A stretch of 64,000 nt of DNA from Escherichia coli. Its GTDB lineage: Bacteria > Pseudomonadota > Gammaproteobacteria > Enterobacterales > Enterobacteriaceae. The DNA is taken from NCBI RefSeq assembly GCF_001677475.2, contig NZ_CP015229.1, one strand, 5' to 3'. The notes beneath the pieces were generated by a model. It saw only the letters and a list, made by a program, of their open reading frames with translations. It searched no databases and was not told where the DNA came from. Positions 42,692-63,735 of this stretch are shown here, one piece after another; position 1 is the stretch's first letter, and the number at the start of each line of letters is the position of its first letter. Made by a program: the position numbers and the translations under genes.

Positions 42692-42699
42692 GGTAAACC

Positions 42700-44748: not shown

Positions 44749-44770
44749 ATTCAGTGCTCACTCAATATCA

Positions 44771-46533: not shown

Positions 46534-46616
46534 AGTGCACCTCCAGTGGCCTAAAAGTGATACCGGAAGGGTAGAATTCTGGCTGCAAAGATTTCGCAAA
46601 AATCTTCGGGCGGGAT

Positions 46617-46634
46617 GTAAAAAAAGTATAAAAA
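46617..46634 (-). promoter_or_regulatory. Putative KdpE binding site in the kdpFABC promoter
   Basis: The minus strand reads TTTTTATACTTTTTTTACA (direct TTTATA / TTTACA half-sites) about 85 nt upstream of kdpF. Confidence 0.5.
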
Positions 46635-46845
46635 TGGCAAAAGCCATGATTTAACTGATGGTTAGTATTAATTTAACTTTTGTGTAACTTAATTACAGTG
46701 TGAATGTAAATAAACCATCAATAAGCAAAAATAAGTGGTCGGATGAGTAGTAAAATTACACAAAAGGCGGTACTATTTTCATCAGATAAACAAATTCATT
46801 TTTCCGGTGCCATTCACCGGGTAGATACAAAAGGGGGAGAAAAGT

Positions 46846-47052
46846 ATGGAACTCTACAGAGAATATCCTGCATGGCTTATCTTTTTACGCCGTACTTATG
46901 CGGTTGTAGCGGGCGTCCTGGCGCTGCCTTTCATGCTTTTCTGGAAAGACCGCGCCCGCTTTTACAGCTACCTGCATCGCGTCTGGTCGAAAACCAGCGA
47001 TAAACCGGTGTGGATGGATCAGGCCGAAAAGGCAACTGGTGATTTTTACTGA
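46846..47052 (+). CDS. ybfA: Small membrane protein YbfA
   Basis: 68 aa, starting [30 protein letters not shown] hairpin lies at 47067-47095. Confidence 0.88.
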
Positions 47053-47806
47053 TTGCCTGCGCGTTTAAGCCAGCCTCGTATCAGGGGGCTGGTTTAGGCG
47101 TTTTGAATCAACGGGTTCCATGGTGTTGTTCATTTAATCACTGTTTTAGTATCAATTTTCAATAGTATCCTTTCATAGGACTACTCTGGATGCGTTCACC
47201 TTCATTGTCGCTCTAAGCAACTAGATCCTCAGAAATCTCCAGTTAGGTTGCATCCTTCCTTACACACTTTCCTGAAACTTCAGGGTAAGGTGAGAAAGCC
47301 GCCATCACTTTTTCTTATTCCAGCATCTAAATAAATTCCGAATTTTGCTATTAATATCGCTACCGCAATAAAAACAGATAGTAAAGAGAGTAATATATAC
47401 TTTAGTGATATGTTAAGAATAATTGATTGTTAACATATCTAATGGGATAAGATGTGTTTCTGTTAATGAAAATATTCAAGATTTATAGTTGATAATTAAA
47501 ATACACTCGATATCTCAGCCCTTTCTATGCAAGATGCAATTTTATAAGCTGTCCATTTTTTATATGGAGGCGGTAGCGTGTTTGTTACTCGTGATTTTAT
47601 TGGTATGGTGAATATGTTGGGATTGTTAAATACATAACGGCATATCAGTTCCGGTCATTGTAAATATGGGTAATTGCTTAATGTTATTAGTGATTACCGT
47701 TTGAAAGATAAAGAGTGCTGTAAAGCGGTGATAGACATTACATTCATGATTAAAAAACAGAACCTGTCAATAAATAATTCATTTATTAAAAAGGACGACT
47801 TCTATT

Positions 47807-48036
47807 ATGACGGAATATTATCTCAATGAGACGGTTTGCAAATACAGAGCCAGTTTCTCCGGGGTAACGAGCAGGTGTACCAGTGTCAGGTGGCATTTGT
47901 ATTGCCGGGTGAGCGGGTCATGATGGCCTTCACCTACGCCCGAACCACACCGCTGACCCCGGCAGATATGACGCGCTGGGCTGAAATTAAAAAGAATCTG
48001 CGCTTCAGGATGCGGCAGGAAGCCGGGACGAATTAA
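47807..48036 (+). pseudogene. Eag-family (DUF1795) T6SS effector chaperone, internally deleted and frameshifted
   Basis: The ATG at 47807 encodes MTEYYLNE, a typical Eag N-terminus. It runs into another frame and stops after 38 codons. The C-terminal roughly 64 codons (QVYQCQVAFVLPGERVMMAFTYARTTPL...) are in a different frame (47836-48036). The total span of 230 bp compares with about 450 bp expected. Confidence 0.7.
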
Positions 48037-48054: not shown

Positions 48055-51000
48055 ATGGAAGAGGCATTCTGGGCGGCAAGGCAGGGTGATGCCCTGCTGC
48101 ATACGTCGTTTATGGCAGATGTGCTGGGGGCAGTTGTAGAGGTTGCCGCCACAGCCCTGGTGGATGTTCTGGTTGTCGGAACCATGGCGGCGCTGGGCGG
48201 AGTTGAAGTGGCAACGCTGGGCTGCTCAACCATTTTAGCGATCGGTATAGCAACAGCGGTATTTATGTCGTATCAGGGCTGGAATGACCGAATCAGTAGG
48301 GAAAGTGAGCAACTGGCGAACTGGCTTTTCCCGCCTCAGATTGAAGGTTACATCCTCACCGGCTCTGGCGACACATGGATCAACAGCAAACCTGCCGCGC
48401 GGGCCGCGGCGACTGCGGCATCGCGGCAGGACATTGAGGCGCAGGAGGCGCAGGCGAAGGCGGAACAGGAAGAAGCGCAGCGTCAGGAGGATGCCAGAAC
48501 GTTCCTGGATGTGGCCGGGGAATATCTGGAAATGGCGGGGGCCATAGCCCTGGCGGTTAACCCGGTGACAGGGCCTGTGCTGATGTCCCGGGCGCTGCAC
48601 GACCAGCTCAGTACGGAAGAAGGGCGTTCTGAAATGGTGGATGGCGTGACACATTTTGTGTCGGAACTATGGCAGCCCACCGTGGCCAGTGCGGCCCCGG
48701 GCTCCACCCCGACCCCTGACGATAAAATCGACTGCCATAAACATCCCTCCTCACTGACGCAGTTTCTCGCACAAAAAAAAGCCGCCTTTCTGGATGACCC
48801 CCTGGGAACGGCCCTTAACCTGCTGAGTCCGGGCGGTATGCTGGAAACCGCCTTTCAGGGAGTGAATGCGGTTATTGGCAGCATCAGTAATCTGTTCAAA
48901 GGCGATGATGAACCGCCCGCAGCGGAATATATCGCGGAAGGCGCGCGGGATGTGCGTATCAACAGCCAGCCGGCGGCACGCAGCGGGGCACGCTGCACCT
49001 GCGAGGCCAGGGTGGTGAATGAGCCGGGGAACGGGGCGTTTGTGTCACCGGATGTCCGCATTGGCGGTCCGTTACTGGTGGTCAGGGATATCAGAAGCGG
49101 CAGGTCGCAGATAACCCTGGTGGCAACCGTGGCGCTGATGTTTCTTCGCCCGGGCAAAATGCTTTCTAAAATCGCCTGTTTTGCTGCCAGTGTCGGGATG
49201 GGGGTGATGACGCAGAAGGCCATCAGTGCCCTTCCGCATCCGGTCAATGCCGCCACCGGAGCCAAATATCTGGCCGATGACGATGATTTTGACTTCAGTC
49301 TGCCGGGCCACTTTCCGCTGGACTGGCAGCGCGTGTACAGCAGTCGTGACGACCGCACGGAAGGGATGTTCGGGCAGGGCTGGAGTGTAATGTATGAAGT
49401 CAGCCTCGAGCGCACGCCGGGTACTGCTGACGAAAACTGTATGACCTTTGTGTCGGGCATGGGACGACGTCTGGATATGGAGGCCGTGCTGCCGGGGAGC
49501 GGGTTTTACAGCCCCGGCGAAGGACTGGCAGTACGGCGGGGTGAGCAGGGGCACTGGCTTATCAGCAGCGATGACGGGCAGTTTTTTCTGTTTGAGGCCG
49601 ACCCGCGTCACCCGCAGCGCCAGCGGCTGAAAATGCTGGGCGACCGCAACAGCAACTGTCTGAATCTGTACTACGACGAGCTGGGGCGCATCACGCAAAT
49701 CAGCGGTGAACAGCAGCGTCCGTGCATCCGTCTGCATTATGAACTGGCGGCGCATCCCCGGCGGGTGACACAGATTTATCAGCATTTCCCTGAGATGGCT
49801 CCTTTACTGCTGCGTCGTTACCGCTATGACGAGGCCGGCGACCTGAACGGCGTGTACGACAGCACGGGGCACCTGCTGCGCGAGTTTGCTTACGACGAAA
49901 ACCACTGCATGACCCTGCACCGCCAGCCGGGCGGCGAAGGGTATTATTACCAGTGGGGCTGGTATGAAGGCCCGGATGACGCAGCGTGGCGGGTGACGGG
50001 GCACCACACGGACAGCGGTGAACAGTACCGGCTGGCGTGGAGCCTGGCGGCACGCAGGCTGTGCGTGACGGACGGGCTGGGGCGCACGCGTTATCATCAG
50101 TGGGACGCGCAAAATCAGGTGACGGCGTACCAGGACGAAGCCGGGCAGGTGACGACGTTCCGCTGGAGCGACGAAGAACGGCTGTTACTGGGAATGACCG
50201 ATGCGCAGGGCGGCAAATGGCGCTATGTGTATGACCGGCAGGGGCATATCACGGAGACGCACGACCCGCTGGGGCGGGTGGCACAGACACAGTGGCACCC
50301 GGTGTGGCACCAGCCGGAAACGGAGGTGGACGCGGCGGGGAACAGCTGGTGCTGTGAGTACGATGAACGCGGCAATCTTCTTGCGGTGACCGACCCGCTG
50401 CAGCAGAACACCCGGTATCAGTATGACCGCCACGGCCAGGTGGTGCAGATAACGGATGCGCGCGGGGGGAATAAATACCTTCAGTGGAACGAAGACGGGC
50501 AGCTCATGCGGCACACGGACTGTTCCGGCTCGCAGACGGCCTGGTTCTACGACGAACGCACGCGGCTGATACGGATGACAGACGCGCAGAGCCACAGCAC
50601 GCGCTACGGGTATGACGACAGCGGCCACCTGACGGAGGTGATACTGGCGGACGGCCGCACGGTGAATTACCAGTCGGACGCGGCGGGCAGGCTGGTGAAG
50701 TACACCAGCCCGATGGGGAGGATAACGCGCTGGCAGCGGGACGGGCAGGGCCGGGTGCGCAGCCGGACAGACGCGACGGGGCGCAGGACGGCGTTCGGGT
50801 ACGATGCCTACGGGCGTCTGGTCACGCTCACGAACGAGAACGGAGAAAGCTACCGGTTCCGCCATGACGTGCTGGACCGTCTGGCGGAGCAGATAAATCC
50901 GGACGGCTGCCGCCAGACGTACCGCTACAACGCGCTGAACGCGGTCACGGAAGTGGTGTTCACCGGGGACCGGGGCGGTGAAATCCGCCACCGGCTGGCA

Positions 51001-52737
51001 CGTGATGCGGCGGGCCGGCTCACGGCAAAGGAGACAGCCGATGGCCATACGGAATACGTCCATGATGCGGCAGACCAGCTACTGGAAATCCGCCGCCGAC
51101 GGTCGGATGCCGGGGAAACAGACGCACCGGAGATTATCCGTTTCAGTTACGACAGACTGGGGCGGATGCTGACCGAGGAGACGGCGCAGGGCGTCCTGAC
51201 CCATCAGTACGATGAACTCAGCAACCGGACAGCCACCACCTTTCCGGATGGCAGAACGCAGCGTCATCTGTACTACGGCAGCGGCCATCTCCAGCAGATA
51301 AATCTGGACCGGGAGGTCATCAGCGAGTTCACACGTGACGCCCTGCACCGGGAAGTGCTCAGAAGTCAGGGGCGACTGAGCACGCGGCAGCTTTATGACC
51401 CCGCCGGGCGGCTGAAGCGCAGGGAGACATACAGCGGGATGCGCGGGGTGGTACCGGAGACGTTCACGGACCGGCAGTACAGCTACAGCGGCGAGGATGA
51501 ATTGCTGAAGACGCGGCACAGCCGGCGGGGGGAAACGGATTACTTCTACGACCCCACGGGGCGCATCACGGCGTGCCGCTCGGAGGATGAGAGGTATCTG
51601 GCGAGCTGGCAGTACGACGCGGCGGGAAACCTGCTGGGGAGGCGCGCGGGGGAAAGGGCCACGGCAGAAAACAGCGTGGTGCCGTTCAACCGGCTGATGT
51701 CTTACCGTGGTGTGCACTACCGTTATGACGAATTTGGCCGGACGGTGGAAAAGGAGGGCCGGAGCGGCACGCAGAGTTACCGTTATGATGCGGAACACCG
51801 GATGGTGGAAGTGACGACAGCGCGGGGGACATACCGGTATGTGTACGATGCGCTGGGGAGGCGGACGGAAAAACAGCACATCAGCCCTGACGGTAAACCG
51901 TACAACCGGACGACATTTTTATGGGACGGAATGCGGCTGGCGCAGGAGAGCAGGCCGGAGGGAATAAGCAGCCTGTATATCTACAGCGACCCGGGGAGTT
52001 ATGAACCGCTGGCGCGGGTGGATAAGGCGGGCAAAGAGGGCCCGAACCGGATACTGTATTTTCACACGGATGTGAACGGTGCGCCGGAAGAGATGACGGA
52101 CAGTGACGGGAAAATCGTGTGGGAGACGGGGTATCAGGTCTGGGGTAACACGATACAGGAGAAGGACCACGGCGGGGTGGAGCAGAACCTGCGCTACCAG
52201 GGACAGTACCTCGACAGGGAAACGGGGCTGCATTACAATCTGCACAGGTACTATGATCCGGATGTCGGGCGGTTCATGGTAACGGACCCGATAGGGCTGG
52301 CGGGGGGACTGAATCTTTACCAATACTCACCGAATCCAATAAGTTGGATCGACCCGCTGGGATTAACAGGGGAGTGGGTTAATCCCAAAGATATTAATTT
52401 TTCTCAAAGAACAATATCACCTCATGATTATGCCGATATTATGCGTAATGGTGGTTGGGATTGGGACAGGTCTCCATTAAGAGTAATTGATATTGATGGG
52501 CAATTAGTTTCTTATGATAATAGGCGATTAGACGCAGCTCTAGAGGCCGGATTAGATAAGGTTAAAGTCATTAGAGTTGACCCTAATGCTCCTCATCCTG
52601 ACTCATCTACTGGAAAAACATGGTTACAAAAATTCCGAGAGAGATTTAGAGATCGAAGAAATATAAAGGCCGGTGGAATAGTACCAGATAAAGGATTAAA
52701 TTCTCGACCGGAAAGAACATCAAGAGGTTGCAAATGA
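48055..52737 (+). CDS. Full-length prePAAR/PAAR-Rhs (YD-repeat) polymorphic toxin with C-terminal ParB/Srx-like toxin tip
   Basis: 1560 aa. The AARQGDALLH prePAAR motif lies at 48073-48102. Two hydrophobic TM regions flank PAAR-like segments. A long GC-rich YD-repeat core follows. The core-end motif PNPISWIDPLGL has DPLGL at 52351-52365. An AT-rich 123-aa tip follows. Confidence 0.93.
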   Translation: MEEAFWAARQGDALLHTSFMADVLGAVVEVAATALVDVLVVGTMAALGGVEVATLGCSTILAIGIATAVFMSYQGWNDRISRESEQLANWLFPPQIEGYILTGSGDTWINSKPAARAAATAASRQDIEAQEAQAKAEQEEAQRQEDARTFLDVAGEYLEMAGAIALAVNPVTGPVLMSRALHDQLSTEEGRSEMVDGVTHFVSELWQPTVASAAPGSTPTPDDKIDCHKHPSSLTQFLAQKKAAFLDDPLGTALNLLSPGGMLETAFQGVNAVIGSISNLFKGDDEPPAAEYIAEGARDVRINSQPAARSGARCTCEARVVNEPGNGAFVSPDVRIGGPLLVVRDIRSGRSQITLVATVALMFLRPGKMLSKIACFAASVGMGVMTQKAISALPHPVNAATGAKYLADDDDFDFSLPGHFPLDWQRVYSSRDDRTEGMFGQGWSVMYEVSLERTPGTADENCMTFVSGMGRRLDMEAVLPGSGFYSPGEGLAVRRGEQGHWLISSDDGQFFLFEADPRHPQRQRLKMLGDRNSNCLNLYYDELGRITQISGEQQRPCIRLHYELAAHPRRVTQIYQHFPEMAPLLLRRYRYDEAGDLNGVYDSTGHLLREFAYDENHCMTLHRQPGGEGYYYQWGWYEGPDDAAWRVTGHHTDSGEQYRLAWSLAARRLCVTDGLGRTRYHQWDAQNQVTAYQDEAGQVTTFRWSDEERLLLGMTDAQGGKWRYVYDRQGHITETHDPLGRVAQTQWHPVWHQPETEVDAAGNSWCCEYDERGNLLAVTDPLQQNTRYQYDRHGQVVQITDARGGNKYLQWNEDGQLMRHTDCSGSQTAWFYDERTRLIRMTDAQSHSTRYGYDDSGHLTEVILADGRTVNYQSDAAGRLVKYTSPMGRITRWQRDGQGRVRSRTDATGRRTAFGYDAYGRLVTLTNENGESYRFRHDVLDRLAEQINPDGCRQTYRYNALNAVTEVVFTGDRGGEIRHRLARDAAGRLTAKETADGHTEYVHDAADQLLEIRRRRSDAGETDAPEIIRFSYDRLGRMLTEETAQGVLTHQYDELSNRTATTFPDGRTQRHLYYGSGHLQQINLDREVISEFTRDALHREVLRSQGRLSTRQLYDPAGRLKRRETYSGMRGVVPETFTDRQYSYSGEDELLKTRHSRRGETDYFYDPTGRITACRSEDERYLASWQYDAAGNLLGRRAGERATAENSVVPFNRLMSYRGVHYRYDEFGRTVEKEGRSGTQSYRYDAEHRMVEVTTARGTYRYVYDALGRRTEKQHISPDGKPYNRTTFLWDGMRLAQESRPEGISSLYIYSDPGSYEPLARVDKAGKEGPNRILYFHTDVNGAPEEMTDSDGKIVWETGYQVWGNTIQEKDHGGVEQNLRYQGQYLDRETGLHYNLHRYYDPDVGRFMVTDPIGLAGGLNLYQYSPNPISWIDPLGLTGEWVNPKDINFSQRTISPHDYADIMRNGGWDWDRSPLRVIDIDGQLVSYDNRRLDAALEAGLDKVKVIRVDPNAPHPDSSTGKTWLQKFRERFRDRRNIKAGGIVPDKGLNSRPERTSRGCK
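50912..52299 (+). repeat. 1388-bp direct repeat, copy A (rhs core 3' part)
   Basis: Aligns without indels to 60705-62092 at a constant offset of 9793 nt. Only four amino-acid differences separate the translated copies. Confidence 0.9.
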
Positions 52738-53168
52738 AAAATATTATTCAGTTATGGGAAGATGGTTTATTACCGATAAAAGATGCTATTTACTTTTCTA
52801 ACGGTGAATCTTTCCTTTGTAAAATAACATCTTACCCTACTCCTTGTATTGAGAAAAATGGTGAGTTTGATTTCTCTGCCTTTTATGAAAAAAATAAAGA
52901 TGAAGTTACTGATATTGATAAGTCTAGAGAAGTTAAATTAGCGAATAATTGCTATTGTTGCATTGGAGAAGGTAGTTATGGTTCTGAAGGATTTATCGCA
53001 TATCTCGATGAAAATAAAAACTTAGTTTGGGTTCTTTATTCCGAAGAATCTAATCCATTTATTAATATAACTGAATATACATCTGATATTATTATAGTAG
53101 AATCAAGTTCTAATATTAGACTAAGAATAAATATAAACAATCCAGTGGATTTAGAATTGGCATTTTAA
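52734..53168 (+). CDS. Cognate Rhs immunity protein (RhsI), family unknown
   Basis: 144 aa. Its ATG overlaps the rhs stop (ATGA at 52734-52737) and an SD aagagg lies upstream. AT-rich like the toxin tip. Confidence 0.75.
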   Translation: MKNIIQLWEDGLLPIKDAIYFSNGESFLCKITSYPTPCIEKNGEFDFSAFYEKNKDEVTDIDKSREVKLANNCYCCIGEGSYGSEGFIAYLDENKNLVWVLYSEESNPFINITEYTSDIIIVESSSNIRLRININNPVDLELAF

Positions 53169-53170
53169 AT

Positions 53171-53208
53171 AAAAAGCCGGGTGAAATTAAATCTTCCCGG
53201 CTTTTTTA
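53171..53208. terminator. Cassette hairpin H1 (bidirectional terminator shared by rhsI and the symE-like gene)
   Basis: aaaaaGCCGGGtgaaattaaatcttCCCGGCtttttt. Confidence 0.75.
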
Positions 53209-53212
53209 TTAT

Positions 53213-53542
53213 TTAACTCTCGTTCAGCACACTAAACATCCCGTTCCGCATCCCCTTAACCACCTGTTTAACCTGATAAAGTTCTTCCCGCAGCTCCTGC
53301 ACCTCGTCACTGTCAGCGATGATGGTCAGGTACCCCTCCGAAATCTTCACCGTGACACCCCGCCCGGTATCAAATCCCGCCTCAGCCAGCCAGTCGCCCT
53401 TGAGGTGCAGGCTGGGATGTTGTGAATAATACCGGGCTATACCTGTTGTGCGGTCCTGGTGGCGGGTTCTGACATAGCCGACTTTATAGCGGCGCTGGGT
53501 TTTGGAAATGGTGACTTCTGGCGTAATATCGTGTTCAGCCAT
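53213..53542 (-). CDS. SymE-family (AbrB/SpoVT-fold, type I toxin-like) protein, intact copy
   Basis: 109 aa. The segment HLKGDWLAEAGFDTGRGVTVKISEGYLTII aligns with remembered K-12 SymE [32 protein letters not shown]. An SD aggag lies 7 nt before the ATG. Confidence 0.75.
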   Translation of the reverse strand: MAEHDITPEVTISKTQRRYKVGYVRTRHQDRTTGIARYYSQHPSLHLKGDWLAEAGFDTGRGVTVKISEGYLTIIADSDEVQELREELYQVKQVVKGMRNGMFSVLNES

Positions 53543-53616
53543 GATTAACTACTCCTGTTAGTTGCTTGTGGTGAGCGGCTGTTACAGGCGGCAACCTGTA
53601 GCAGTCGCGTTAAATA

Positions 53617-53760
53617 TCAACGCATTACCTTCATTACCTGCTTCATCTTCTCCTGGGTGATCGCCATATCCAGAATACGGCAGATCACTTCCTGATCGTC
53701 TGCTTTAAGCTCATCAACCTGCTTACACAGTTCTTTTAACCGCTTGTTTTTTATATCGAA
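53617..53760 (-). pseudogene. 3' fragment of an unknown gene upstream of symE-like copy 1, apparently cut by the GC-rich fragment
   Basis: The minus frame reads ..DIKNKRLKELCKQVDELKADDQEVICRILDMAITQEKMKQVMKVMR* (stop at 53617-53619). There is no start codon. AT-rich sequence ends abruptly at about 53760. Confidence 0.3.
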
Positions 53761-54861
53761 AACATCGCGGAAGAAGAAGGTGTGCGCCAGGCGGCCTACG
53801 CGCTCAAGCTGTTGCAGTCGGACGGGGAACTGACCATCGCCAGTACGGGCAAGGATGACGCCAGCGGTAACCTGGTCACCAAACAGTATACGGTGAAAGG
53901 CCCGGTGATGCTGATGCTGACCACCACCGCCATCGATGTTGACGAGGAGTTACTCAACCGCTGTCTGGTGCTGACGGTGAACGAATCGCGGGAACAGACG
54001 GAAGCTATCCACGCGGCGCAGCGTTACGCGCAGACGCTGGAAGGACTGCTGGCGGCTAACGAAAAAAGTTACATCACGCAGCTTCACCAGAACGCGCAGC
54101 GGCTGCTGCGCCCGCTCAACGTGGTGAACCCGTTCGCCTCGCAGCTCACGTTCATGAGCGACAAAACCCGCACCCGGCGCGACCACATGAAATACCTGAC
54201 GCTGATCCAGGCGATCGCCCTGCTGCACCAGTACCAGCGGGAGATCAAGCGCGTGGAGCATCGCGGGCAGGTGGTGGAGTACATCGAGGTCACGCGGGAG
54301 GACATCGCCCTGGCGAACCGCCTGGCACATGAAATACTCGGGCGCACCCTGGATGAAATGCCGCCGCAGACGCGCAAACTGTTAACCCTGATCCAGCAAT
54401 GGGTGAGCGACAGCGGTCAGGCGCGTGAGGCGATGCGGTTCACCCGTAAACAACTGCGTGACGCGGTACAGTGGGGCGACACGCAGCTCAAGATCCACCT
54501 GGCGCGGCTGGTCGAAATGGAATATCTGCTGGTCCACCGTCTCGGGCTGACGTTCTGCTATGAACTGCTGTTCGACGGGGACGGCAGCGCAGACACCGCG
54601 CACCTGTGCGGGCTGATCGACGTACCGGAACCACCGTATGACGTCGCCCGGTCGGGGGAAACGGTGAAGCAGCTGGCCTCTGGTCGGGCAGTGGTCGGCG
54701 GTCAGTCGGGTAAGGAAAAAACCGCCTCAGACCAGACACCACGAGGCTTACAGGCCGGAGCGGTCGGGGCAGAGGAAAAAGCCCTGTTCCGGCAGAACGC
54801 AAAAAAACCGTCCCGCAATCATACTGCGGCCCGTCCGGGCCGGAGCAACACGGAAGCATAA
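53761..54861 (+). pseudogene. 5'-truncated gene of a GC-rich mobile element (large conserved protein, function not assignable here)
   Basis: The ORF reading ..IAEEEGVRQAAYALKLLQSDGELTIASTGKD... has no plausible native start. Composition changes sharply at about 53760. It is followed by a tyrosine recombinase gene. Confidence 0.55.
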
Positions 54862-54895
54862 GTACGACTTCATCCGGTCGGGGCAACGGCTGCAA

Positions 54896-54939
54896 TAGTC
54901 GGCCCCTGGTCGGCAGTCAGTCGGCGGGTAGTCGGGGTG
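54896..54939. repeat. Four tandem 11-bp iteron-like repeats containing GTCGG
   Basis: tagtcggcccc / tggtcggcagt / cagtcggcggg / tagtcggggtg. A fifth GTCGG lies at 54877-54881. The repeats lie between the truncated gene and the recombinase gene. Confidence 0.7.
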
Positions 54940-55065
54940 CGTAAAACCCCCGCAGGCCGCGCCCGGCAAGGTTCAGGCCATGAAGCGGTCGGCCTGCCTG
55001 AAAATCACTGTTCCATCCTCTGTTCTTCTCTCTGTCGTACCGTAATCTCAATCAGGACAATCATC

Positions 55066-56095
55066 ATGACAAAACCCATCCCTCCGGGGCCGGAGGAACT
55101 TTACCTCAGCCGCCAGAACCTGACGCAGCGCCAGTATGTGGTGGTGTGGCTGGAATACCTGACGGCACAGAACTACAGCGCGATCAGCGTAAGCGACTAT
55201 CGCGAACGGGTGTTACCGTTCGTGACATGGTGTGAGGAGCGCGGGCTGATGTACGCGCCGCAGGTCAGCCAGCCGCAGCTTGAAAGCTATCAGCGCCACC
55301 TTCACGGCTACCGTAAGGCGGACGGCCATCCGCTGGCGGTCAGCGGTCAGGTGGGCCGGATAAGCGCGATAAAAATCTTTTACCGCTGGCTGCTGAAGCG
55401 GCATGTGATCCTGTACAACCCCGCCGATCTGCTGGAACTGCCAAAGCCGGACAAACGGCTTCCGGCGCAGGTGTTCAGTAAGGGCGAGACGCGGCAGGTG
55501 TTACAGAGCCTTGATATCAACACGCCCGTTGGCCTGCGCAACCGGACAATCCTTGAGGTGCTGTGGAGTACCGGGATCAGGCGGATGGAGCTGGCCAGCC
55601 TGATGTTGTGGGATGTTGACACCGGGCGCGGTGTGGTTAACGTGCGGCAGGGTAAGGGGCGTAAGGATCGGGTGGTTCCGGTGGGCCATGTGGCGCTGGG
55701 ATGGCTGGCAAGACGTGCGACCACAGATGACGCGCCAGCGCGACAGTGGTCATCTGTTCGTGACGAAATACGGCAGCGGGATGAAACGCAACACGCTGAC
55801 GGCGATGGCAGGCACCGCGATCCGGGAAACGGCACGGATCGACAAACCGGGCGCGTGCCATATCTTCCGGCACTCGATGGCGACGCAGATGCTGGACAAT
55901 GGCGCAGACACGCGGCATATCCAGGCGATCCTCGGCCATGAGAAGCTGGAGACGACGCAGATCTACACGAAGGTGGCCATAAAGCCGTTGCAGAAGGTTC
56001 ATGCGCGGACGCACCCGGCAGAGAAGCGGCGAAGGGAAAAGCGCGTGCAGCAGCCGGACGAGGCCACCGTATCGCCGGACAGCCTGAAAAGTTAG
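55066..56095 (+). pseudogene. Tyrosine recombinase (XerC/D-like integrase), frameshifted
   Basis: MTKPIPPG...TGIRRMELASL...[12 protein letters not shown] is in one frame. After about 55710 the homology continues in the +1 frame ([36 protein letters not shown]). The catalytic Arg is therefore separated from the HxxR and Tyr residues. Confidence 0.8.
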
Positions 56096-56260
56096 GTGGC
56101 GATCCCTGTAAGGCCGTGGGGTGCGGTGCAGGGCAGACAACCGCCTTCCCTGGCGGTTGACTGCCCCCTGCCAGCGGCGTGCGCGGGGGTAAATGCCGTC
56201 CGCCCCGTGGAGGCAGCCGCGCCCCATGCGACCATGCAGCACGGGGCAAACGTCATTCAA

Positions 56261-56352
56261 CATAATGCGGATTATGCGCACTCTCGCCGGTCGGCAATGA
56301 CGGCGAACCCGATCCGCTGTGCGCGGCTCGTGTTCGCACAATCCGCATTATG
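56261..56352. repeat. Imperfect 20-bp inverted repeat with a 52-bp spacer
   Basis: cataatgcggattatgcgca (56261-56280) against the reverse complement of ttcgcacaatccgcattatg (56333-56352). 18/20 positions match, including 13 contiguous. Confidence 0.7.
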
Positions 56353-57005
56353 TCTGACGCCCCCGCGTTCAGCCCCGTGGTCCGTGCAGCGCAAAGCTTC
56401 GCTGGCGCTCCGCTCTGCTGCCGGGTGCGGTGTTCTTCTGTGGCCCCGCAGTCGCCGCCATCCCTGGCGGCTCCGGTGCCGTTCTGCGGCAGCGTCATCG
56501 TGTGGCAGTCAGTCAGAAAAGGGTGTCGGCCTGGCGGCCTCCGCTTGTAAGGGCTTTATGCCCGCCCGGCGTCGTCTGGCTGCGGCGGCTCGTGCCGCGC
56601 AAAAAGGCCGCGCGTCACTCGTTCCCGCCTCGCCAGCTTCCGCTGCCCGCCCCGGTCAGGTGTGGTCATGCAAAGGCAACCCCCGGTCAGGCAGCGGTGC
56701 CACAGAGCGCCGTTCCGTCGCTTGCGGACTCTCTGCCGCCCGCACCCGCAGACCCCGCGCCGTGGCCCCGCCATGCCGCCGGAGGCGTCCTGGCGGCCCC
56801 CCGTCACGGGGTGCCGGAAACGGACTTAGTGGAAAGCGGAATGACAGGCGGTGGTGGTGGTGCTATGGTGAGCGGGCGTGAAAATGCGCGTCGGGAAAGT
56901 CGGGTTAACGTGCTGTTAAATAAGTAAAAGGTGATAGCCGGGAAGCCAGAAACGGCGCGGGCGGTAGCGTGTTAAAAAGTGTGACCTGCACCGGATCGTT
57001 CCGAT

Positions 57006-57515
57006 GACCCGATAGGACTGCGGGGTGGATTAAATCTCTATCAATATGCGCCGAATCCGTTGAGCTATATTGATCCTCTTGGCCTTTGTAAATTAAGGGG
57101 AAGTAATGGGCGCTTCAGAAGTGCTCAGAATATTCAGGAAGAAATAGGCGGACTACCTAATTTTTCAGGGAAGACTCCAGGGCAAATACGACAAACTTTG
57201 CGTAATCGAGTTTATTCGTCGGTACAAGCGCATAGTGGTGGAGAGGTCTGGACAAAAGCATTACCTGACGGAAATACTGTTGCTGTGAGAATTGACCCGG
57301 CAAATCCTCGCTCACCTTCACATTATGCTGATGCTGTGCCTCATGCTCATATTGAAACAGTTCCAACGTCCAGTGTTTCTAATGGGAATTATCGCCCACG
57401 AGACGTGACTGGCAGGCATACTGCCACTGGTGGGATTTCTGACCGAGGAACGAATCCGAATCATAATGCTGATGTTCACATTCCAATGTCTCCGGGACGA
57501 TTCCCATATAATTAA
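57006..57515 (+). CDS. Orphan Rhs C-terminal toxin 1 (core stub + CT domain of unknown family); no own start codon
   Basis: [27 protein letters not shown] is followed by a 143-aa AT-rich CT. The frame opens just after a TGA, with only an internal TTG at 57060. Confidence 0.75.
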   Translation, partial: DPIGLRGGLNLYQYAPNPLSYIDPLGLCKLRGSNGRFRSAQNIQEEIGGLPNFSGKTPGQIRQTLRNRVYSSVQAHSGGEVWTKALPDGNTVAVRIDPANPRSPSHYADAVPHAHIETVPTSSVSNGNYRPRDVTGRHTATGGISDRGTNPNHNADVHIPMSPGRFPYN

Positions 57516-57526
57516 TGTGAGGTTTT

Positions 57527-57790
57527 ATGAATATCCGAAATCAATATAATGAAGCCTTAAATAAATTAGAAGTTGATGTTAATGATGGTTTAAGAGATTT
57601 AATAAACATATATTGTGTAGCTATTGATTCTTTTGAAAATGATATCGTTGACTCGATTGCTTTATACGTGATTGATATGGGAAATAAAGATACTTGTCGA
57701 TATCTACAAGAAATATTATCAGAGAATGAAGATCCTTATTTAGTAAAAGAATTTAATGCATGGATGAAAGAAATTAAGAAAAAATATTAA
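57527..57790 (+). CDS. Orphan immunity protein 1
   Basis: 87 aa. It begins 11 nt after the toxin stop with an SD gagg. AT-rich. Confidence 0.7.
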   Translation: MNIRNQYNEALNKLEVDVNDGLRDLINIYCVAIDSFENDIVDSIALYVIDMGNKDTCRYLQEILSENEDPYLVKEFNAWMKEIKKKY

Positions 57791-57793
57791 AAT

Positions 57794-57831
57794 AAAAGCC
57801 GGGACGGTTATTAAATCTTCCCGGCTTTTTT
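57794..57831. terminator. Cassette hairpin H2
   Basis: aaaaGCCGGGacggttattaaatcttCCCGGCtttttt. Confidence 0.75.
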
Positions 57832-57836
57832 ATTAC

Positions 57837-58070
57837 TTAACTTTCGTTCAGCACACTAAACATCCCGTCACGCATTCCCTTAACCGCCTGTTTAACCAGA
57901 TAAAGTTCCCTGCGCAGTTCCTGTACTTCGTTGTTATCCGCAAGCAGGATCAGACATCCTTCCGAGATCTTCACGGTGACGCCCGTGCCGATCTCAAATC
58001 CCGCTTCTCTCAGCCATTTTGCGCTGATTTTGATTACCGGCGTGTCGCTGCGGTTGGGCAGATAACCCAC
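57837..58070 (-). CDS. SymE-family ORF, copy 2, lacking a canonical start upstream of the conserved N-terminal segment
   Basis: 77 aa from an in-frame GTG. The frame stays open upstream to 58154 and encodes the conserved ISKTQRHCTVGY segment, but contains no ATG/GTG/TTG or SD there. Confidence 0.5.
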   Translation of the reverse strand: MGYLPNRSDTPVIKISAKWLREAGFEIGTGVTVKISEGCLILLADNNEVQELRRELYLVKQAVKGMRDGMFSVLNES

Positions 58071-58376
58071 GGTACAGTGGCGCTGTGTTTTGGAAATGAT
58101 ATTCTTATATTTAATCTGCTGATTAGATAGTAAAATTAACTTCGTGCAGATAGCTTACTTTATCAGGGTGCGGCGGTAGTGTATGAACTATGACGTGATG
58201 GTTTTAGTGATTTATATACGAAAATGACAGTACGATCCGGACTTCGAATAGATTGCGCGATTTGACCCGATAGGGCTGGCGGGGGGATTAAATCTCTATC
58301 AATATGCGCCTAATCCGTTAAGTTATATTGATCCACTTGGATTGTGTCCTAAAACTGACTTTAAATGGGGAAATCC

Positions 58377-59667
58377 CAGGGAAAGATCACGTAATGCTGC
58401 TTTTTTGTACTAAACAATTCGCATTTTATGTTTAAAAATTGAGATATTCCTCATTACATAAAGCTGTTTTTTATTGCTTATACATGATCAAATACTCCTT
58501 ACATAATTAAGGAGAACAAAATGGAACTTAAAAAATTGATGGAACATATTTCTATTATCCCCGATTACAGACAAGCCTGGAAAGTGGAACATAAATTATC
58601 GGATATTCTACTGTTGACTATTTGTGCCGTTATTTCGGGTGCAGAAGGCTGGGAAGATATAGAGGATTTTGGGGAAACACATCTCGATTTTTTGAAGCAA
58701 TATGGTGATTTTGATAATGGTATTCCTGTTCACGATACCATTGCCAGAGTTGTATCCTGTATCAGTCCTGCAAAATTTCACGAGTGCTTTATTAACTGGA
58801 TGCGTGACTGCCATTCTTCAGATGATAAAGACGTCATCGCAATTGATGGAAAAACGCTCCGGCATTCTTATGACAAGAGTCGCCGCAGGGGAGCGATTCA
58901 TGTCATTAGTGCGTTCTCAACAATGCACAGTCTGGTCATCGGACAGATCAGGACGGATGAGAAATCAAATGAAATTACAGCTATCCCTGAACTTCTTAAC
59001 ATGCTGGATATTAAAGGAAAAATCATCACAACTGATGCGATGGGTTGCCAGAAAGATATTGCAGAGAAGATACAAAAACAGGGAGGTGATTATTTATTCG
59101 CTGTAAAAGGAAACCAGGGGCGGCTAAATAAAGCCTTTGAGGAAAAATTCCCACTGAAAGAATTAAATAATCCAGAGCATGACAGTTACGCAATTAGTGA
59201 AAAGAGTCACGGCAGAGAAGAAATCCGTCTTCACATTGTTTGCGATGTCCCTGATGAACTTATTGATTTCACGTTTGAATGGAAAGGACTGAAGAAATTA
59301 TGCGTGGCAGTCTCCTTTCGGTCAATAATAGCAGAACAAAAGAAAGAGCCAGAAATGACGGTCAGATATTATATCAGTTCTGCTGATTTAACCGCAGAGA
59401 AGTTCGCCACAGCAATCCGAAACCACTGGCACGTGGAGAATAAGCTGCACTGGCGTCTGGACGTGGTAATGAATGAAGACGACTGCAAAATAAGAAGAGG
59501 AAACGCCGCAGAATTATTTTCAGGGATACGGCACATCGCTATTAATATTTTAACGAATGATAAGGTATTCAAGGCAGGGTTAAGACGTAAGATGCGAAAA
59601 GCAGCCATGGACAGAAACTATCTCGCGTCAGTCCTTGCGGGGAGCGGGCTTTCGTAATCTTGCCCTG
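58377..59667 (+). mobile_element. ISAs1-family element (Rhs-associated H-repeat), 1291 bp
   Basis: Terminal IRs are CAGGGAAAGATCACGTAA and TTACGAAAGCCC..(rc CAGGGCAAGATTACGAAA). A perfect 10-bp target duplication GGGGAAATCC lies at 58367-58376 and 59668-59677. Confidence 0.9.
58521..59657 (+). CDS. ISAs1-family (H-repeat-associated) transposase
   Basis: 378 aa, starting [51 protein letters not shown]. Matches remembered YbfL/YhhI-type proteins. Confidence 0.92.
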
Positions 59668-60010
59668 GGGGAAATCCAAAAAGTAAGCCTACATACGGTC
59701 ACACATTTTCTGAACACGGACAGAAAATGAAACCAAGTCAGTTAATTGATCGTGCCAGAAATAAAGGTCATCAAGTAGGACAATATCTCGATGATAATTC
59801 TGCTGCTGATTTTATTGCTTCTGTTGCCAAAAAAGGTCCGGGTGTGCATGATGTGCCATTGCCTACAAATATAAAAGGTCGAGGTTATTTGCCTGATGGG
59901 ACAGAGGTCGTTCCAGATATGGCAAGGGTTGTTGTAAAACCCGATGGTTCTGTACGAACATCGTTCCCATTCAATTCATCACACACCAACTAAAGTAATG
60001 AAGGGTATAT

Positions 60011-60391
60011 ATGAATGAAATAGATAAGATCTGTAGTGAACTTGGCGTACCAGTTGGTGATAAGTTTACACAAGATTGGGCTTATGAACTGCCTGAAAAA
60101 TATCGAACTAAAGAGTGGCTAAGTAAATACATTGCTGCATACTTAAACAATGGCTACTCCCAAAAAGGGAAGACTGAATTAATGACTTTAGCCCTTGATG
60201 TCTGTAATGATTTATTATCTTCTGGAGTACCCCCATCAGATGAGGTTATTATAAAAGTACTCAACGCCCTGCGTGATAATTACAAAAATCATATAGATCT
60301 TATTAATTATTGGTCCTTGGATGATGAATCTTTAGATGACAGTTTTGCATTAACTCCTGAAATAAGGGAGCTAAAAAGAAGATTGATTTAG
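60011..60391 (+). CDS. Orphan immunity protein 2
   Basis: 126 aa. It begins 17 nt after the toxin-2 stop with an SD aaggg. Confidence 0.7.
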   Translation: MNEIDKICSELGVPVGDKFTQDWAYELPEKYRTKEWLSKYIAAYLNNGYSQKGKTELMTLALDVCNDLLSSGVPPSDEVIIKVLNALRDNYKNHIDLINYWSLDDESLDDSFALTPEIRELKRRLI

Positions 60392-60413
60392 GATTATAAT
60401 ATTATTAAGTTAT

Positions 60414-60447
60414 AAAAAGCCGGGAATATAATCTTCCCGGCTTTTTT
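60414..60447. terminator. Cassette hairpin H3
   Basis: aaaaaGCCGGGaatataatcttCCCGGCtttttt. Confidence 0.75.
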
Positions 60448-60452
60448 ATTAT

Positions 60453-60677
60453 TTAACTCTCGTTCAGCACACTAAACATCCCGTCACGCATCCCCTTAAC
60501 CGCCTGTTTAACCTGATAAAGTTCCCTGCGCAGTTCCTGTACTTCGTTGTTATCCGCGAGCAGGATCAGGCAACCTTCCGAGATCTTCACGGTAACGCCC
60601 GTACCGATCTCAAATCCCGCTTCTCTCAGCCATTTGGCGCTGATTTTGATCACCGGCGTGTCGCTGCGGTTGGGCAG
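60453..60677 (-). pseudogene. SymE-family gene, copy 3, 5'-truncated at the junction with an rhs core fragment
   Basis: Identical to copy 2 apart from one residue, back to ..LPNRSDTP. Homology stops at about 60677, where rhs-core-like sequence begins. Confidence 0.75.
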
Positions 60678-60704
60678 ATGCTGCGCTGGCAGCACGACGG
60701 CAGA

Positions 60705-62518
60705 GCCAGACGTACCGTTACAACGCGCTGAACGCGGTCACGGAAGTGGTGTTCACCGGGGACCGGGGCGGTGAAATCCGCCACCGGCTGGCACGTGATG
60801 CGGCGGGCCGGCTCACGGCAAAGGAGACAGCCGATAGCCGAACGGAATACGTCCATGATGCGGCAGACCAGCTACTGGAAATCCGCCGCCGACGGTCGGA
60901 TGCCGGGGAAATGGACGCACCGGAGATTATCCGTTTCAGTTACGACAGACTGGGGCGGATGCTGACTGAGGAGACGGCGCAGGGCGTCCTGACCCATCAG
61001 TACGATGAACTCAGCAACCGGACAGCCACCACCTTTCCGGACGGCAGAACGCAGCGTCATCTGTACTACGGCAGCGGCCATCTCCAGCAGATAAATCTGG
61101 ACCGGGAGGTCATCAGCGAGTTCACACGTGACGCCCTGCACCGGGAAGTGCTCAGAAGTCAGGGGCGACTGAGCACGCGGCAGCTTTATGACCCCGCCGG
61201 GCGGCTGAAGCGCAGGGAGACATACAGCGGGATGCGCGGGGTGGTACCGGAGACGTTCACGGACCGGCAGTACAGCTACAGCGGCGAGGATGAACTGCTG
61301 AAGACGCGGCACAGCCGGCGGGGGGAAACGGATTACTTCTACGACCCCACGGGGCGCATCACGGCGTGCCGCTCGGAGGATGAGGGGTATCTGGCGAGCT
61401 GGCAGTACGACGCGGCGGGAAACCTGCTGGGGAGGCGCGCGGGGGAAAGGGCCACGGCAGAAAACAGCGTGGTGCCGTTCAACCGGCTGATGTCTTACCG
61501 TGGTGTGCACTACCGTTATGACGAATTTGGCCGGACGGTGGAAAAGGAGGGCCGGAGCGGCACGCAGAGTTACCGTTATGATGCGGAACACCGGATGGTG
61601 GAAGTGACGACAGCGCGGGGGACATACCGGTATGTGTACGATGCGCTGGGGAGGCGGACGGAAAAACAGCACATCAGCCCTGACGGTAAAGCGTACAACC
61701 GGACGACATTTTTATGGGACGGAATGCGGCTGGCGCAGGAGAGCAGGCCGGAGGGAATAAGTAGCCTGTATATCTACAGCGACCCGGGGAGTTATGAACC
61801 GCTGGCGCGGGTGGATAAGGCGGGCAAAGAGGGCCCGAACCGGATACTGTATTTTCACACGGATGTGAACGGTGCGCCGGAAGAGATGACGGACAGTGAC
61901 GGGAAAATCGTGTGGGAGACGGGGTATCAGGTCTGGGGTAACACGATACAGGAGAAGGACCACGGCGGGGTGGAGCAGAACCTGCGCTACCAGGGACAGT
62001 ACCTCGACAGGGAAACGGGGCTGCACTACAATCTGCACAGGTACTATGATCCGGATGTCGGGCGGTTCATGGTAACGGACCCGATAGGGCTGAGAGGCGG
62101 ATTAAACTTATACCAATACGCGCCTAATCCGTTAAGCTGGATCGATCCTCTTGGATTAAGTGCCGCCTCTGATTTACCTCAATTAAAAGGAAGATCCCCA
62201 GGGGCAATAGGTTCTATTCTTACTGATAATGGATTCAATTTAGATAAACAAACAAGTACCGGGAATCAGACTTGGAGCCACGCCGATGGTTCTAAAGTTC
62301 GTGTCGATCCCTATGGAAACCAAAGTATGACTATGAAAAACGGTGATCCATTACCGAAATCAGGAGCTAACGCACATGTGCATAAATATGATCCCGGTGA
62401 GATACCGCTGAATGACAGAGGCATTCCGAGTACAAATCCAAATGAAACACATATAGGGATCAGGAATCCAAATGATTATTCTACAAAACGAGGGCGGGCC
62501 CATGGGTGCGGCGTATAA
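60705..62518 (+). CDS. Orphan Rhs fragment 3: 1.39-kb core 3' segment (direct repeat copy B, 60705-62092) plus a distinct CT toxin
   Basis: The translation is near-identical to main Rhs residues from QTYRYNALNAVTEVVFT to VTDPIGL. It then diverges: [22 protein letters not shown] followed by a 119-aa CT from 62159. The 5' side (60678-60704) is a scrambled YD fragment in another frame. The only start is an internal GTG at 60746. Confidence 0.85.
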
Positions 62519-62530
62519 GGTAAGAAATTA

Positions 62531-62815
62531 ATGAGTGTTGAATATGTTATACATGTCGATGATAAAGTAGATAATTTACTTTCTTTTATTGTCGAGAGAA
62601 TAAAGGAAAATCAACCATCCTCTCGAATTAATACTGACGGTTCACTTTGGATTCCATCTAGCTATTCAAATTGGATTGATTTTTCAATAGAAGACCATGA
62701 GGATGGTTTTTTTATTGTAAATAATTTAAATGGAAGTGATAGAGATAAATTATTTTCACTGATATTTACTGCCTTTCATGAATTATCTATAAAATATGAA
62801 ATAGAAGAAGTCTAA
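62531..62815 (+). CDS. Orphan immunity protein 3
   Basis: 94 aa. It begins 12 nt after the toxin-3 stop with an SD aagg. Confidence 0.7.
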   Translation: MSVEYVIHVDDKVDNLLSFIVERIKENQPSSRINTDGSLWIPSSYSNWIDFSIEDHEDGFFIVNNLNGSDRDKLFSLIFTAFHELSIKYEIEEV

Positions 62816-62817
62816 TG

Positions 62818-62897
62818 AAAGCCGGGTTTTTGGACTGACCCCATAAAGTTGGACACCCAACTGATTAAGGTGCAGTCCAACATATTCCCGGCTTTTT
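62818..62897. terminator. Cassette hairpin H4, with its loop expanded by a 49-bp insertion
   Basis: aaaGCCGGGtttt[49 bp]acatattCCCGGCttttt. Confidence 0.6.
62831..62879. mobile_element. Miniature IS150-group/IS1397-like element (49 bp)
   Basis: TGGACTGACCCCATAAAGTTGGACACCCAACTGATTAAGGTGCAGTCCA has termini TGGACTG / CAGTCCA. It aligns with the first roughly 50 nt of the IS at 1044-1094 (TGAACTGCACCCCAAATGTTGGACA...GAAGGTGCAGTT). Confidence 0.6.
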
Positions 62898-62902
62898 ATT
62901 AT

Positions 62903-63136
62903 TTAACTCTCGTTCAGTACACTAAATATCCCGTCACGCATACCCTTAACCACCTGTTTAACCTGATAAAGTTCCCTGCGCAGTTCCTGTACTTCGTTGT
63001 TATCTGCAAGCAGGATCTGGCAGCCTTCCGAGATCTTCACGGTAACGCCCGTGCCGATCTCAAATCCCGCTTCTCTCAGCCATTTTGCGCTGATTTTGAT
63101 TACCGGCGTGTCGCTGCGGTTGGGCAGATAACCCAC
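62903..63136 (-). CDS. SymE-family ORF, copy 4, lacking a canonical start upstream of the conserved N-terminal segment
   Basis: 77 aa, differing from copy 2 at 4 residues. The upstream conserved but start-less segment is the same as in copy 2. Confidence 0.5.
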   Translation of the reverse strand: MGYLPNRSDTPVIKISAKWLREAGFEIGTGVTVKISEGCQILLADNNEVQELRRELYQVKQVVKGMRDGIFSVLNES

Positions 63137-63329
63137 GGTACAGTGGCGCTGTGTTTTGGAAATGATATTTTTGTATTTAACCTGCTGATTAGATAGTAAA
63201 ATAAACTTCGTGCAGATAGCTTACTTTATCAGGGTGTGGCGGTAGCGTATGAACTATGATGCGGTGGTTTCAGGAATGTACGTACAAAATCGATAGTACG
63301 ATCCTCCAATCAGGTAGATTTGCTGCCCT

Positions 63330-63734
63330 GATCCGATAGGGCTAAGAGGCGGGCTGAACCTGTATGCTTATGCGCCTAATCCGCTGAAATATATTGATCC
63401 ACTCGGATTAAAAAAAGAGCTCTGTAATGGAACTACTCGTGTGCGGCATTATACTAATCGTAAAGGTTCAAATGCGATTGCTGAAAGTGGGATAATTAAG
63501 GCGCATGATAACGGTCGTGTATATTTGGAACCTGCGAATAAAAAACCACTCAGTCAAGTAGACATAGAGGCGAAATATCAAATAGGTCGTGGGAAAGGTA
63601 GAGATTATGTGGATACAGATGTATCTAACGAGCAATTAGAGTGGGTAACAAACCCTCGATATCATATAGATGAATTGACTGTGAAAGGTGATATTATTCT
63701 TTCTGAAAATGCAAAAATAACTCGGCGTAAATAA
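63330..63734 (+). CDS. Orphan Rhs C-terminal toxin 4 (possible HYD1-type ADP-ribosyltransferase); no own start codon
   Basis: DPIGLRGGLNLYAYAPNPLKYIDPLGL is followed by KKELCNGTTRVRHYTNRKGSNAIAESGII.... The frame opens after the TAG at 63315-63317. Confidence 0.7.
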   Translation, partial: DPIGLRGGLNLYAYAPNPLKYIDPLGLKKELCNGTTRVRHYTNRKGSNAIAESGIIKAHDNGRVYLEPANKKPLSQVDIEAKYQIGRGKGRDYVDTDVSNEQLEWVTNPRYHIDELTVKGDIILSENAKITRRK

Positions 63735-63735
63735 T

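Follow-up and report, generated by a model that had tools for sequence, protein, structure and literature searches.

A 1388-bp direct repeat may permit toxin-tip exchange by homologous recombination at an Escherichia coli rhs locus, and a close relative bears the corresponding fused form

Introduction

Can the toxin tip of a full-length Rhs protein be exchanged for a displaced tip that lies further along the same locus? This question is raised by a 64,000-nucleotide stretch of Escherichia coli DNA (contig NZ_CP015229.1 of assembly GCF_001677475.2; hereafter the window), in which a complete rhs gene, here called the main rhs gene, is followed by four orphan tip/immunity cassettes. Each cassette ends in symE, and only the third, orphan 3, keeps a long piece of the conserved Rhs core. 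The locus occupies the classical E. coli rhsC position, with kdpFABC-ybfA on its left and, beyond the window end in relatives, ybgA-phrB. An initial annotation made from the letters of the window had proposed that two near-identical core segments could replace the C-terminal (CT) tip of the main Rhs protein, CT1, with that of orphan 3, CT3, through a 9,793-bp deletion. The analysis presented here supports, with qualifications, the view that a tip swap by homologous recombination is possible at this locus and that a close relative bears the swapped form. The public record for the fused form consists of one contig from a sister lineage, which matches in the phase of its single nucleotide polymorphisms (SNPs) but has a discordant 40-bp linker.

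Results

The main rhs gene and orphan 3 share a near-identical core segment

The two copies of the repeat (A and B in Table 1) were compared directly. Each is 1388 nt long and, as initially annotated, they align at a constant offset of 9793 with zero indels. They differ at 13 positions (99.06% identity), which in main-copy numbering are 50925, 51043, 51047, 51048, 51119, 51120, 51174, 51249, 51502, 51592, 51898, 51969, and 52233; the longest mismatch-free runs are 305, 263, and 252 nt. To the left of the repeat, identity in 50-nt blocks is immediately at chance level. To the right it decays across a linker of ∼67 nt (44/50, then 38/50 identical positions), beyond which CT1 and CT3 are unalignable. 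A BLAST search of the window against itself returned 50902–52366 versus 60696–62159 at 97.7% identity with one gap, which is the same 1388-bp repeat together with the degenerate linker. The similarity is beyond anything that chance could yield. In translation, five residues separate the two copies (G/S, H/R, T/M, R/G, P/A), one more than first counted, and the core of orphan 3 begins at core position 2858.

The other three orphans carry only stubs of about 80 bp, as had been noted from the sequence. Orphans 1, 2, and 4 have 78–85 nt in common with the main gene at 67–80% identity, and their longest exact matches to it are 11, 24, and 11 nt, respectively. Such stubs are expected to be poor substrates for RecA.

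Misassembly of the window does not account for the duplication, because independent NCBI assemblies reproduce both sides of it and the path between them. One contig (L007) covers the left junction together with the complete orphan 3 at 99.98% identity over 59669–64000. A second (L017) is 100% identical over 51545–61336, leading from CT1 across the 8.4-kb interval and on into orphan 3, and a third (L018) follows the same path over 52309–60717, the two together at 99.9–100% identity. Pieces 100% identical to the window are present in many further NCBI E. coli assemblies. The whole of L017 (GCA_031341795.3) measures 9,792 nt, the repeat period of 9,793 minus one, and its ends abut within the repeat. 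Ordinary assembler behaviour with a direct repeat gives such a cycle-like form, but so would tandem amplification or a circle that had been excised.

Recombination between the copies is predicted to give an in-frame Rhs-CT3 protein

A crossover at any position of the repeat produces a continuous, in-frame Rhs-CT3 open reading frame (ORF) of 1556 aa with imm3 12 nt downstream. The expectation that recombination would fuse the full-length Rhs to CT3 and its immunity gene is therefore upheld for every crossover point. The predicted loss was also correctly described: the 9,793 bp hold CT1 and imm1, the first symE copy, the GC-rich remnant, the immunity ORFs of orphans 1 and 2 along with these orphans themselves, and the ISEc1 H-repeat.

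The names imm1 and imm3 denote presumed immunity genes for CT1 and CT3, assigned from their co-occurrence with these tips. The exact imm1 protein always adjoins CT1 (23 public contigs), either in the rhsC-position locus or in a short-stub orphan of the rhs array at yafV-ivy-fadE. The exact imm3 protein directly follows CT3 in 10 of the 10 public places shown (23 contigs examined). CT3 would be the toxic partner and imm3 the protective one.

A sister sublineage carries CT3 on a full-length rhs gene

The lineage of the window is divergent and under-represented. When its housekeeping flank (speF-kdp, 36000–47500) is compared with 5,426 complete E. coli genomes in RefSeq, the best match reaches no more than 96.9% identity, which indicates the divergence. 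Surveillance assemblies with 100% identity to the window nevertheless number in the dozens. The main Rhs protein is on record in E. coli as an exact match (ANO87881.1/WP_065226381.1).

Comparison of related strains, which the initial annotation had suggested, located the fused form in a sister sublineage, so that the refuting outcome named there, a lack of any fused relative, was not obtained. An exact look-up of imm3 led to one 14.9-kb Logan short-read contig from run ERR14024652 (L006), with the gene order kdpB-kdpA-ybfA-Rhs(1556 aa)-imm3, in which CT3 is attached to a full-length rhs gene at the same locus. No break interrupts this contig anywhere within rhs, which points to a single core copy in that genome. 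The two arrangements lie in near-identical chromosomal backgrounds. In the flank, 3 of 2961 nt differ between L006 and the window (99.9% identical); in the 5′ part of the core, 1 of 2857 nt differs; and the 840 nt from 62133 to the contig end, in which CT3, imm3, and the first part of symE lie, match in full.

Within the repeat, L006 is main-like at 50925 and 51047–48 and orphan-3-like at 51043 and at all sites from 51119 to 52233 except 51969, giving 9 differences from the main copy and 4 from orphan 3. Only the window's own orphan copy has T at 51969; L010, L008, and all outgroups have C. Such a pattern fits two arrangements separated by one reciprocal crossover that fell between 51048 and 51119.

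The sublineage of the window itself is marked by a private YbfA A21V allele, and L006 carries the common YbfA allele. In contrast to L006, all 23 contigs examined from the window's own sublineage stop before the 3′ end of rhs, in keeping with the two-copy form. At four representative places, three contigs break inside the repeat and one ends upstream of rhs.

Observations that weigh against a simple exchange

Several results count against the swap as proposed, or against L006 as its direct product. The 40-bp linker of L006 (62093–62132) differs from that of orphan 3 at 17 positions, its first half being of the CT1 type and its second half unique. L006 is therefore not a clean one-step product of the two copies in the window, and an extra conversion or an independent origin is needed. 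L006 moreover consists of one de Bruijn contig from short reads, and the public record holds its Rhs protein a single time. Its alleles at 51249, 51502, 51592, and 52233 are the states of every other core examined (L001, L002, L016, and L031, plus orphan 3 and L006), and they show only that the main copy has private alleles. The fused arrangement, queried as core 49500–52299 joined to CT3 and imm3, was found in none of 5,426 complete E. coli genomes; CT3 occurs in one of these, as a short-stub orphan in a vgrG-rhs locus next to ansP/yddH. An exact look-up among ∼15 billion public proteins returned none of five recombinant proteins predicted for single crossovers. This negative carries little weight, since short reads seldom yield a full-length rhs gene on assembly. 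In addition, a plain deletion would lose imm1 and, by the Salmonella argument discussed below, would be counter-selected. Finally, the upstream Eag-type chaperone gene is broken, and a swapped toxin might not be delivered.

A DcrB/DUF1795 (Eag-type) chaperone gene normally precedes this class of rhs gene. When intact 150-aa proteins from E. coli EC554 and 2012C-4221 were used as tblastn queries, only residues 1–17 and 77–151 matched, in different frames; residues ∼10–84 are deleted and the remainder is out of frame. Pfam DcrB matches a 66-aa ORF of the remnant weakly. The pseudogene has an identical sequence in L006, and an intact 150-aa gene is present in E. coli A34, EC554, and 2012C-4221. 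No vgrG lies between ybfA and rhs in the window. The 98.4% identical paralogue in E. coli 2012C-4221 is accompanied by both the chaperone gene and vgrG, the latter annotated as a truncated pseudogene. With the chaperone gene a pseudogene, delivery of either toxin is uncertain and may depend on genes outside the window.

Two other leads were considered and rejected. At L008 and eight similar places, CT3 stands behind a core with the main copy's private alleles at 51502, 51592, and 52233, which could be taken for gene conversion between the copies. In the L008 assembly batch the left contigs end at 51270–51276 and the CT3 contigs begin at the equivalent point (∼51271/61064), and this coincidence makes a collapsed-repeat consensus the better explanation. 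E. coli A34, which has CT1-imm1 alone at the same locus, was rejected as the donor of CT1: its core is only 94% identical and lacks the private alleles of the main copy.

Table 1. Features of the rhs locus, in window coordinates
Feature	Position	Strand	Description
Eag-type chaperone remnant (DcrB/DUF1795)	47808..48036	+	∼225-bp internal deletion and frameshift
Main rhs, 1560 aa	48055..52737	+	prePAAR motif, PAAR, DUF6531, RHS repeats, RHS core domain, DPIGL demarcation, CT1 tip
Repeat copy A	50912..52299	+	final 1388 bp of the main gene's conserved core
CT1 tip	52366..52734	+	ParB/sulfiredoxin-like predicted fold; no Pfam/NCBIfam family
imm1, presumed CT1 immunity	52734..53168	+	144 aa from ATG; overlaps the rhs stop codon
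symE copy 1	53213..53542	-	full length, 109 aa; Pfam SymE_toxin 6.2e-20
GC-rich (58–68%) mobile-element remnant	53782..56900	+	primase-like C-terminal ORF and broken tyrosine integrase
Orphan 1	57005..57790	+	85-nt stub, CT (151-aa ORF), 87-aa immunity ORF
symE fragment	57837..58070	-	77 aa; Pfam SymE_toxin 2.6e-11
Orphan 2	58263..60391	+	stub 58263–58347, ISEc1/H-repeat insertion, 88-aa ORF, 126-aa ORF
5′-truncated symE and filler	60453..60704	-	80 aa plus 25-nt filler; symE homology ends at 60679, core starts at 60705
Repeat copy B	60705..62092	+	1388-bp core fragment in orphan 3
Orphan 3 ORF	60746..62518	+	590 aa from in-frame GTG; core fragment, linker, CT3; RHS_repeat and RHS core matches
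CT3 tip	∼62159–62518	+	C-terminal end of the orphan 3 ORF
imm3, presumed CT3 immunity	62531..62815	+	94 aa; 12 nt downstream of orphan 3
symE fragment	62903..63136	-	77 aa; Pfam SymE_toxin 8.8e-10
Orphan 4	63329..63734	+	stub and Tox-ART-HYD1 ADP-ribosyltransferase tip, Pfam 1.9e-14; outside the predicted deletion

The main Rhs protein and its tip

Pfam matches in the main Rhs protein comprise RHS_repeat (2.6e-79, 11 stretches), DUF6531 (2.7e-19), RHS PF03527 (9.7e-15), and, at residues 291–321, PAAR_motif (3.9e-8). Residues 7–16 of the translation read AARQGDALLH, the prePAAR motif reportedly described by Ahmad et al. in 2020. The demarcation between core and tip is of the PxxxxDPxGL type (translation RYYDPDVGRFMVTDPIGL at 52285), and identity between the two copies collapses directly after it.

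Searches of CT1 against Pfam, NCBIfam, and PDB sequences gave no match. An AlphaFold2 model built from a 28-sequence alignment has a pLDDT of 93.8, and its top Foldseek matches in the PDB are the N-domains of ParB, Noc, KorB, SbnI, and sulfiredoxin, with E values of 4e-4 to 1e-2. The earlier description of CT1 as ParB-like is thus upheld at the level of the predicted fold. The 58 homologues found lie at the C-termini of Rhs or polymorphic toxins in Enterobacterales, Streptomyces, and Firmicutes, and the invariant residues of the family include S15, Q16, R17, and a YDNRR motif.

The interval and the orphan cassettes

A gene or fragment of symE, a type I toxin, closes every tip/immunity cassette on the opposite strand, at 53213–53542, 57837–58070, 60453–60695, and 62903–63136. 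Three copies of the symE region (57794–58063, 60415–60679, and 62882–63129) are 94–95% identical over ∼250–270 nt; they are therefore candidate substrates for further recombination, by which entire cassettes could be lost or rearranged. At 60414–60446 the sequence can form a strong hairpin resembling a bidirectional terminator. The GC content is 0.59–0.67 in the core versus 0.34–0.46 in the tips.

The GC-rich block among the AT-rich cassettes looks like the remnant of an integrative element within the orphan array. Pfam matches to Phage_integrase and its SAM-like N domain fall at 54937–55941, and the primase-like ORF is 359 aa long. At the equivalent place E. coli EC554 has a gene annotated as ‘DNA primase, frameshifted’, xerC, and a helix-turn-helix regulator. 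In orphan 2, the transposase of the insertion (58521–59657) matches DDE_Tnp_1 and DDE_Tnp_1_assoc. From their positions, the 88-aa ORF is possibly the remainder of the toxin and the 126-aa ORF a possible immunity gene; the pair occurs free of the insertion sequence at another locus (contig L025).

The left end of orphan 3 is an illegitimate join between symE and the core, with GCAGAT microhomology to the main gene at 50890. CT3 has no match in Pfam or NCBIfam. It includes the stretch AHVHKYD, and a homologue in Lysinibacillus, 53% identical, carries the UniRef name ‘HNH/Endo VII superfamily nuclease toxin’.

The tips in other genomes

In other E. coli, CT1/imm1 and CT3/imm3 are found as short-stub orphans at a second rhs locus, an array beside yafV-ivy-fadE. 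In some contigs (L014–L016, L021) this array holds both CT pairs, each then followed by symE. A CT3-like tip, 85% identical, ends an ORF of at least 992 aa on contig L013. The tips are decoupled from their cores, as the 94% identical core behind CT1-imm1 in E. coli A34 also shows, and are mobile between loci. At least five alleles of the linker in front of CT3 occur across loci, and this linker is a recombination junction in its own right. When one genome of each species was scanned for CT3, a single locus was returned, in Enterobacteriaceae bacterium B14, too coarse a result for comparing strains. A search of cluster representatives with CT3 alone returned only short orphan-like proteins; full-length Rhs-CT3 proteins fall in a 7,194-member cluster whose representative bears another tip.

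Discussion

The locus is probably a classical Rhs C-terminal displacement array with a 9,793-bp direct-repeat unit, in which RecA-dependent recombination can swap the tip, presumably at a rate that would still be measurable. In this scheme, one full-length PAAR-Rhs gene of the T6SS (type VI secretion system) type is followed by displaced tip/immunity cassettes, and retention of the 1388-bp core by orphan 3 creates the repeat unit. Recombination of one copy with the other would delete the interval as a 9.8-kb circle and leave the Rhs delivery part joined to CT3, with imm3 directly 3′. Unequal sister exchange would instead duplicate the unit, giving one chromosome with both Rhs-CT1/imm1 and Rhs-CT3/imm3. 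In the reverse reaction, the circle would insert into a single-copy Rhs-CT3 gene.

The Salmonella precedent for orphan activation that the initial annotation had invoked does exist. In S. Typhimurium LT2, a 522-bp tract of 95% identity suffices for fusions between the main and orphan genes during passage (Koskiniemi et al., 2014; PMC3967940). The Salmonella recombinants kept an unrearranged copy, duplication having come first, and a plain deletion would lose rhsI-main (PMC3967940). By analogy, duplication with recombination is the more likely selectable route at the E. coli locus as well, because a bare 9.8-kb deletion loses the immunity gene against the sibling's toxin. Of the initial proposal, the geometry and the in-frame product stand, and the bare deletion becomes the less likely way in which a swap would be selected.

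The strongest competing explanation, which we consider a real possibility although we would not bet on it, is that the repeat is only a historical scar. An L006-like single-copy state would be ancestral, and a single crossover would once have brought in a 9.8-kb circle with CT1 and imm1, a piece of core, and the older orphans, following the model of Jackson et al. (2009; PMC2935791), with no switching today. Deletion from a window-like ancestor and circle insertion into an L006-like ancestor are mirror images and predict the same SNP phase, which fits both equally. An attempt to polarise the change with the outgroup cores of 2012C-4221, EC554, L016, and A34 found the four main-copy alleles to be private, as both directions predict. 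The insertion scenario agrees with the common YbfA allele of L006 as opposed to the private A21V of the window, with the failure of all 23 own-sublineage contigs to reach the rhs 3′ end (as expected of a fixed two-copy state with no fused variant), and with the absence of the predicted recombinant proteins from public data. The illegitimate symE/core junction would also have been made once. On the other hand, a 1388-bp repeat at 99% identity is a recombination substrate whatever its origin, and the shorter and less similar Salmonella tract recombines detectably within days. Short-read assemblies are unable to reveal minority recombinants. The linker fits neither direction: orphan 3's is unlike that of L006, and simple insertion fails by the same 17 nt as deletion.

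A stronger version of the recombining array, in which this E. coli lineage is still switching tips back and forth by way of an excised 9.8-kb circle, with the sister sublineages one reciprocal exchange apart, is unlikely on present evidence. If it were true, the 9,792-nt contig L017 could stem from real circles or tandem amplification and not from the assembler, and the circular intermediate proposed by Jackson et al. (2009), of which the sources consulted report no observation, would become directly observable.

It is more doubtful still that orphan 3 works alone from an internal start, as a toxin-antitoxin-like module or an immunity reservoir, and keeps its long core for that purpose. Its 590-aa ORF is intact from an in-frame GTG. 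In each of the two copies a sigma-70-like site, TCGACA-17-TACAAT (10/12 matches), stands at the core's end and just upstream of the linker (52211–52239 and 62004–62032), and could drive expression of tip and immunity gene independently of the main promoter. The part of the literature consulted includes reports of Salmonella orphan rhs modules as type II toxin-antitoxin-like (PMC7043789) and of orphan immunity genes that protect against foreign toxins (PMC10539506). Against this, promoter-like sites are no commoner here than in shuffled sequence (3 found vs 5.2 expected), and CT3/imm3 persists elsewhere with a stub of ∼80 nt (L009, L014–L016, 2012C-4221), which makes a long core unnecessary. 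An autonomous role would in any case be compatible with the repeat serving also as a recombination substrate.

The idea that the L006 fusion is an assembly chimera of a two-copy genome, and hence no evidence of a natural swap, is equally improbable: L006 is one Logan contig whose protein has been seen once, and the similar mosaic L008 (T,A,G,C,T at 51502–52233) is best read as a collapsed-repeat consensus, but L006 has haplotypes found in neither window copy (AGCCAT at 51043–51048, within a single 31-mer, and the unique 20-nt linker segment) and so cannot be stitched from those two copies, and it is unbroken through both would-be forks, the repeat start and the linker.

Recombination between long core repeats has older parallels in this species. 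In E. coli K-12, RecA-dependent unequal crossing-over between the long near-identical core repeats of RhsA and RhsB was reportedly described by Lin, Capage and Hill in 1984; those repeats are said to lie in different loci ∼140 kb apart and to give large duplications. The repeats studied here, by contrast, share one locus, and it is the toxin tip that their recombination would alter.

Among the closest known systems is the pair rhs-main (STM0291) and rhs-CT-orphan (STM0292) of LT2, likewise a full-length T6SS-associated Rhs followed by an orphan tip with its immunity gene and a common stretch of core. In both, homologous recombination in the common tract would fuse the delivery part to the orphan toxin, a reaction that is experimental in LT2 and read from sequence here. 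The tract is 1388 bp at 99% here versus 522 bp at 95% in LT2, and the interval is 8.4 kb, with two more orphans, symE genes, an insertion sequence, and a mobile-element remnant, versus only rhsI-main. Arrays of dissociated tips, in which core fragments form direct repeats of varying length and homologous recombination through an excised circle was proposed, have been described by Jackson et al. (2009; PMC2935791). The locus resembles those of Serratia marcescens SMA1610 and the E. coli clade IV locus in its downstream strings of tips, its core-fragment direct repeats, and its AT-rich tips and GC-rich core, and nothing essential is different. It goes beyond them in offering a near-isogenic natural pair that is apparently one exchange apart, and in the symE that ends every cassette.

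Two less closely related systems follow a similar logic. In contact-dependent inhibition (CDI), cdiA-CT/cdiI orphans (Poole et al., 2011; PMC3150448) are silent toxin/immunity pairs downstream of the active gene with a short piece of conserved pre-toxin sequence through which exchange might occur; CDI differs in its two-partner secretion, in a VENN rather than a DPxGL motif, and in homology tracts that are usually much shorter. The Neisseria pilE/pilS system, an analogy drawn in PMC2935791, likewise rewrites an expressed locus by RecA-dependent recombination with silent, promoterless partial copies. There the process is non-reciprocal gene conversion with dedicated cis elements, and no such element was found at this rhs locus.

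Both the architecture and the mechanism have thus been published before, and the locus is a sound but ordinary example that leaves current understanding unchanged. The substrate that it offers is unusually good, at nearly three times the length of the validated Salmonella tract and with far higher similarity. Rhs tips determine which neighbours can be killed, and the speed with which the active tip can change sets the pace of the arms race. The main value of the locus lies in the near-isogenic pair formed by the window and L006, which would be a convenient natural test bed for the rate of switching, for the circular intermediate, and for whether duplication must precede the swap.

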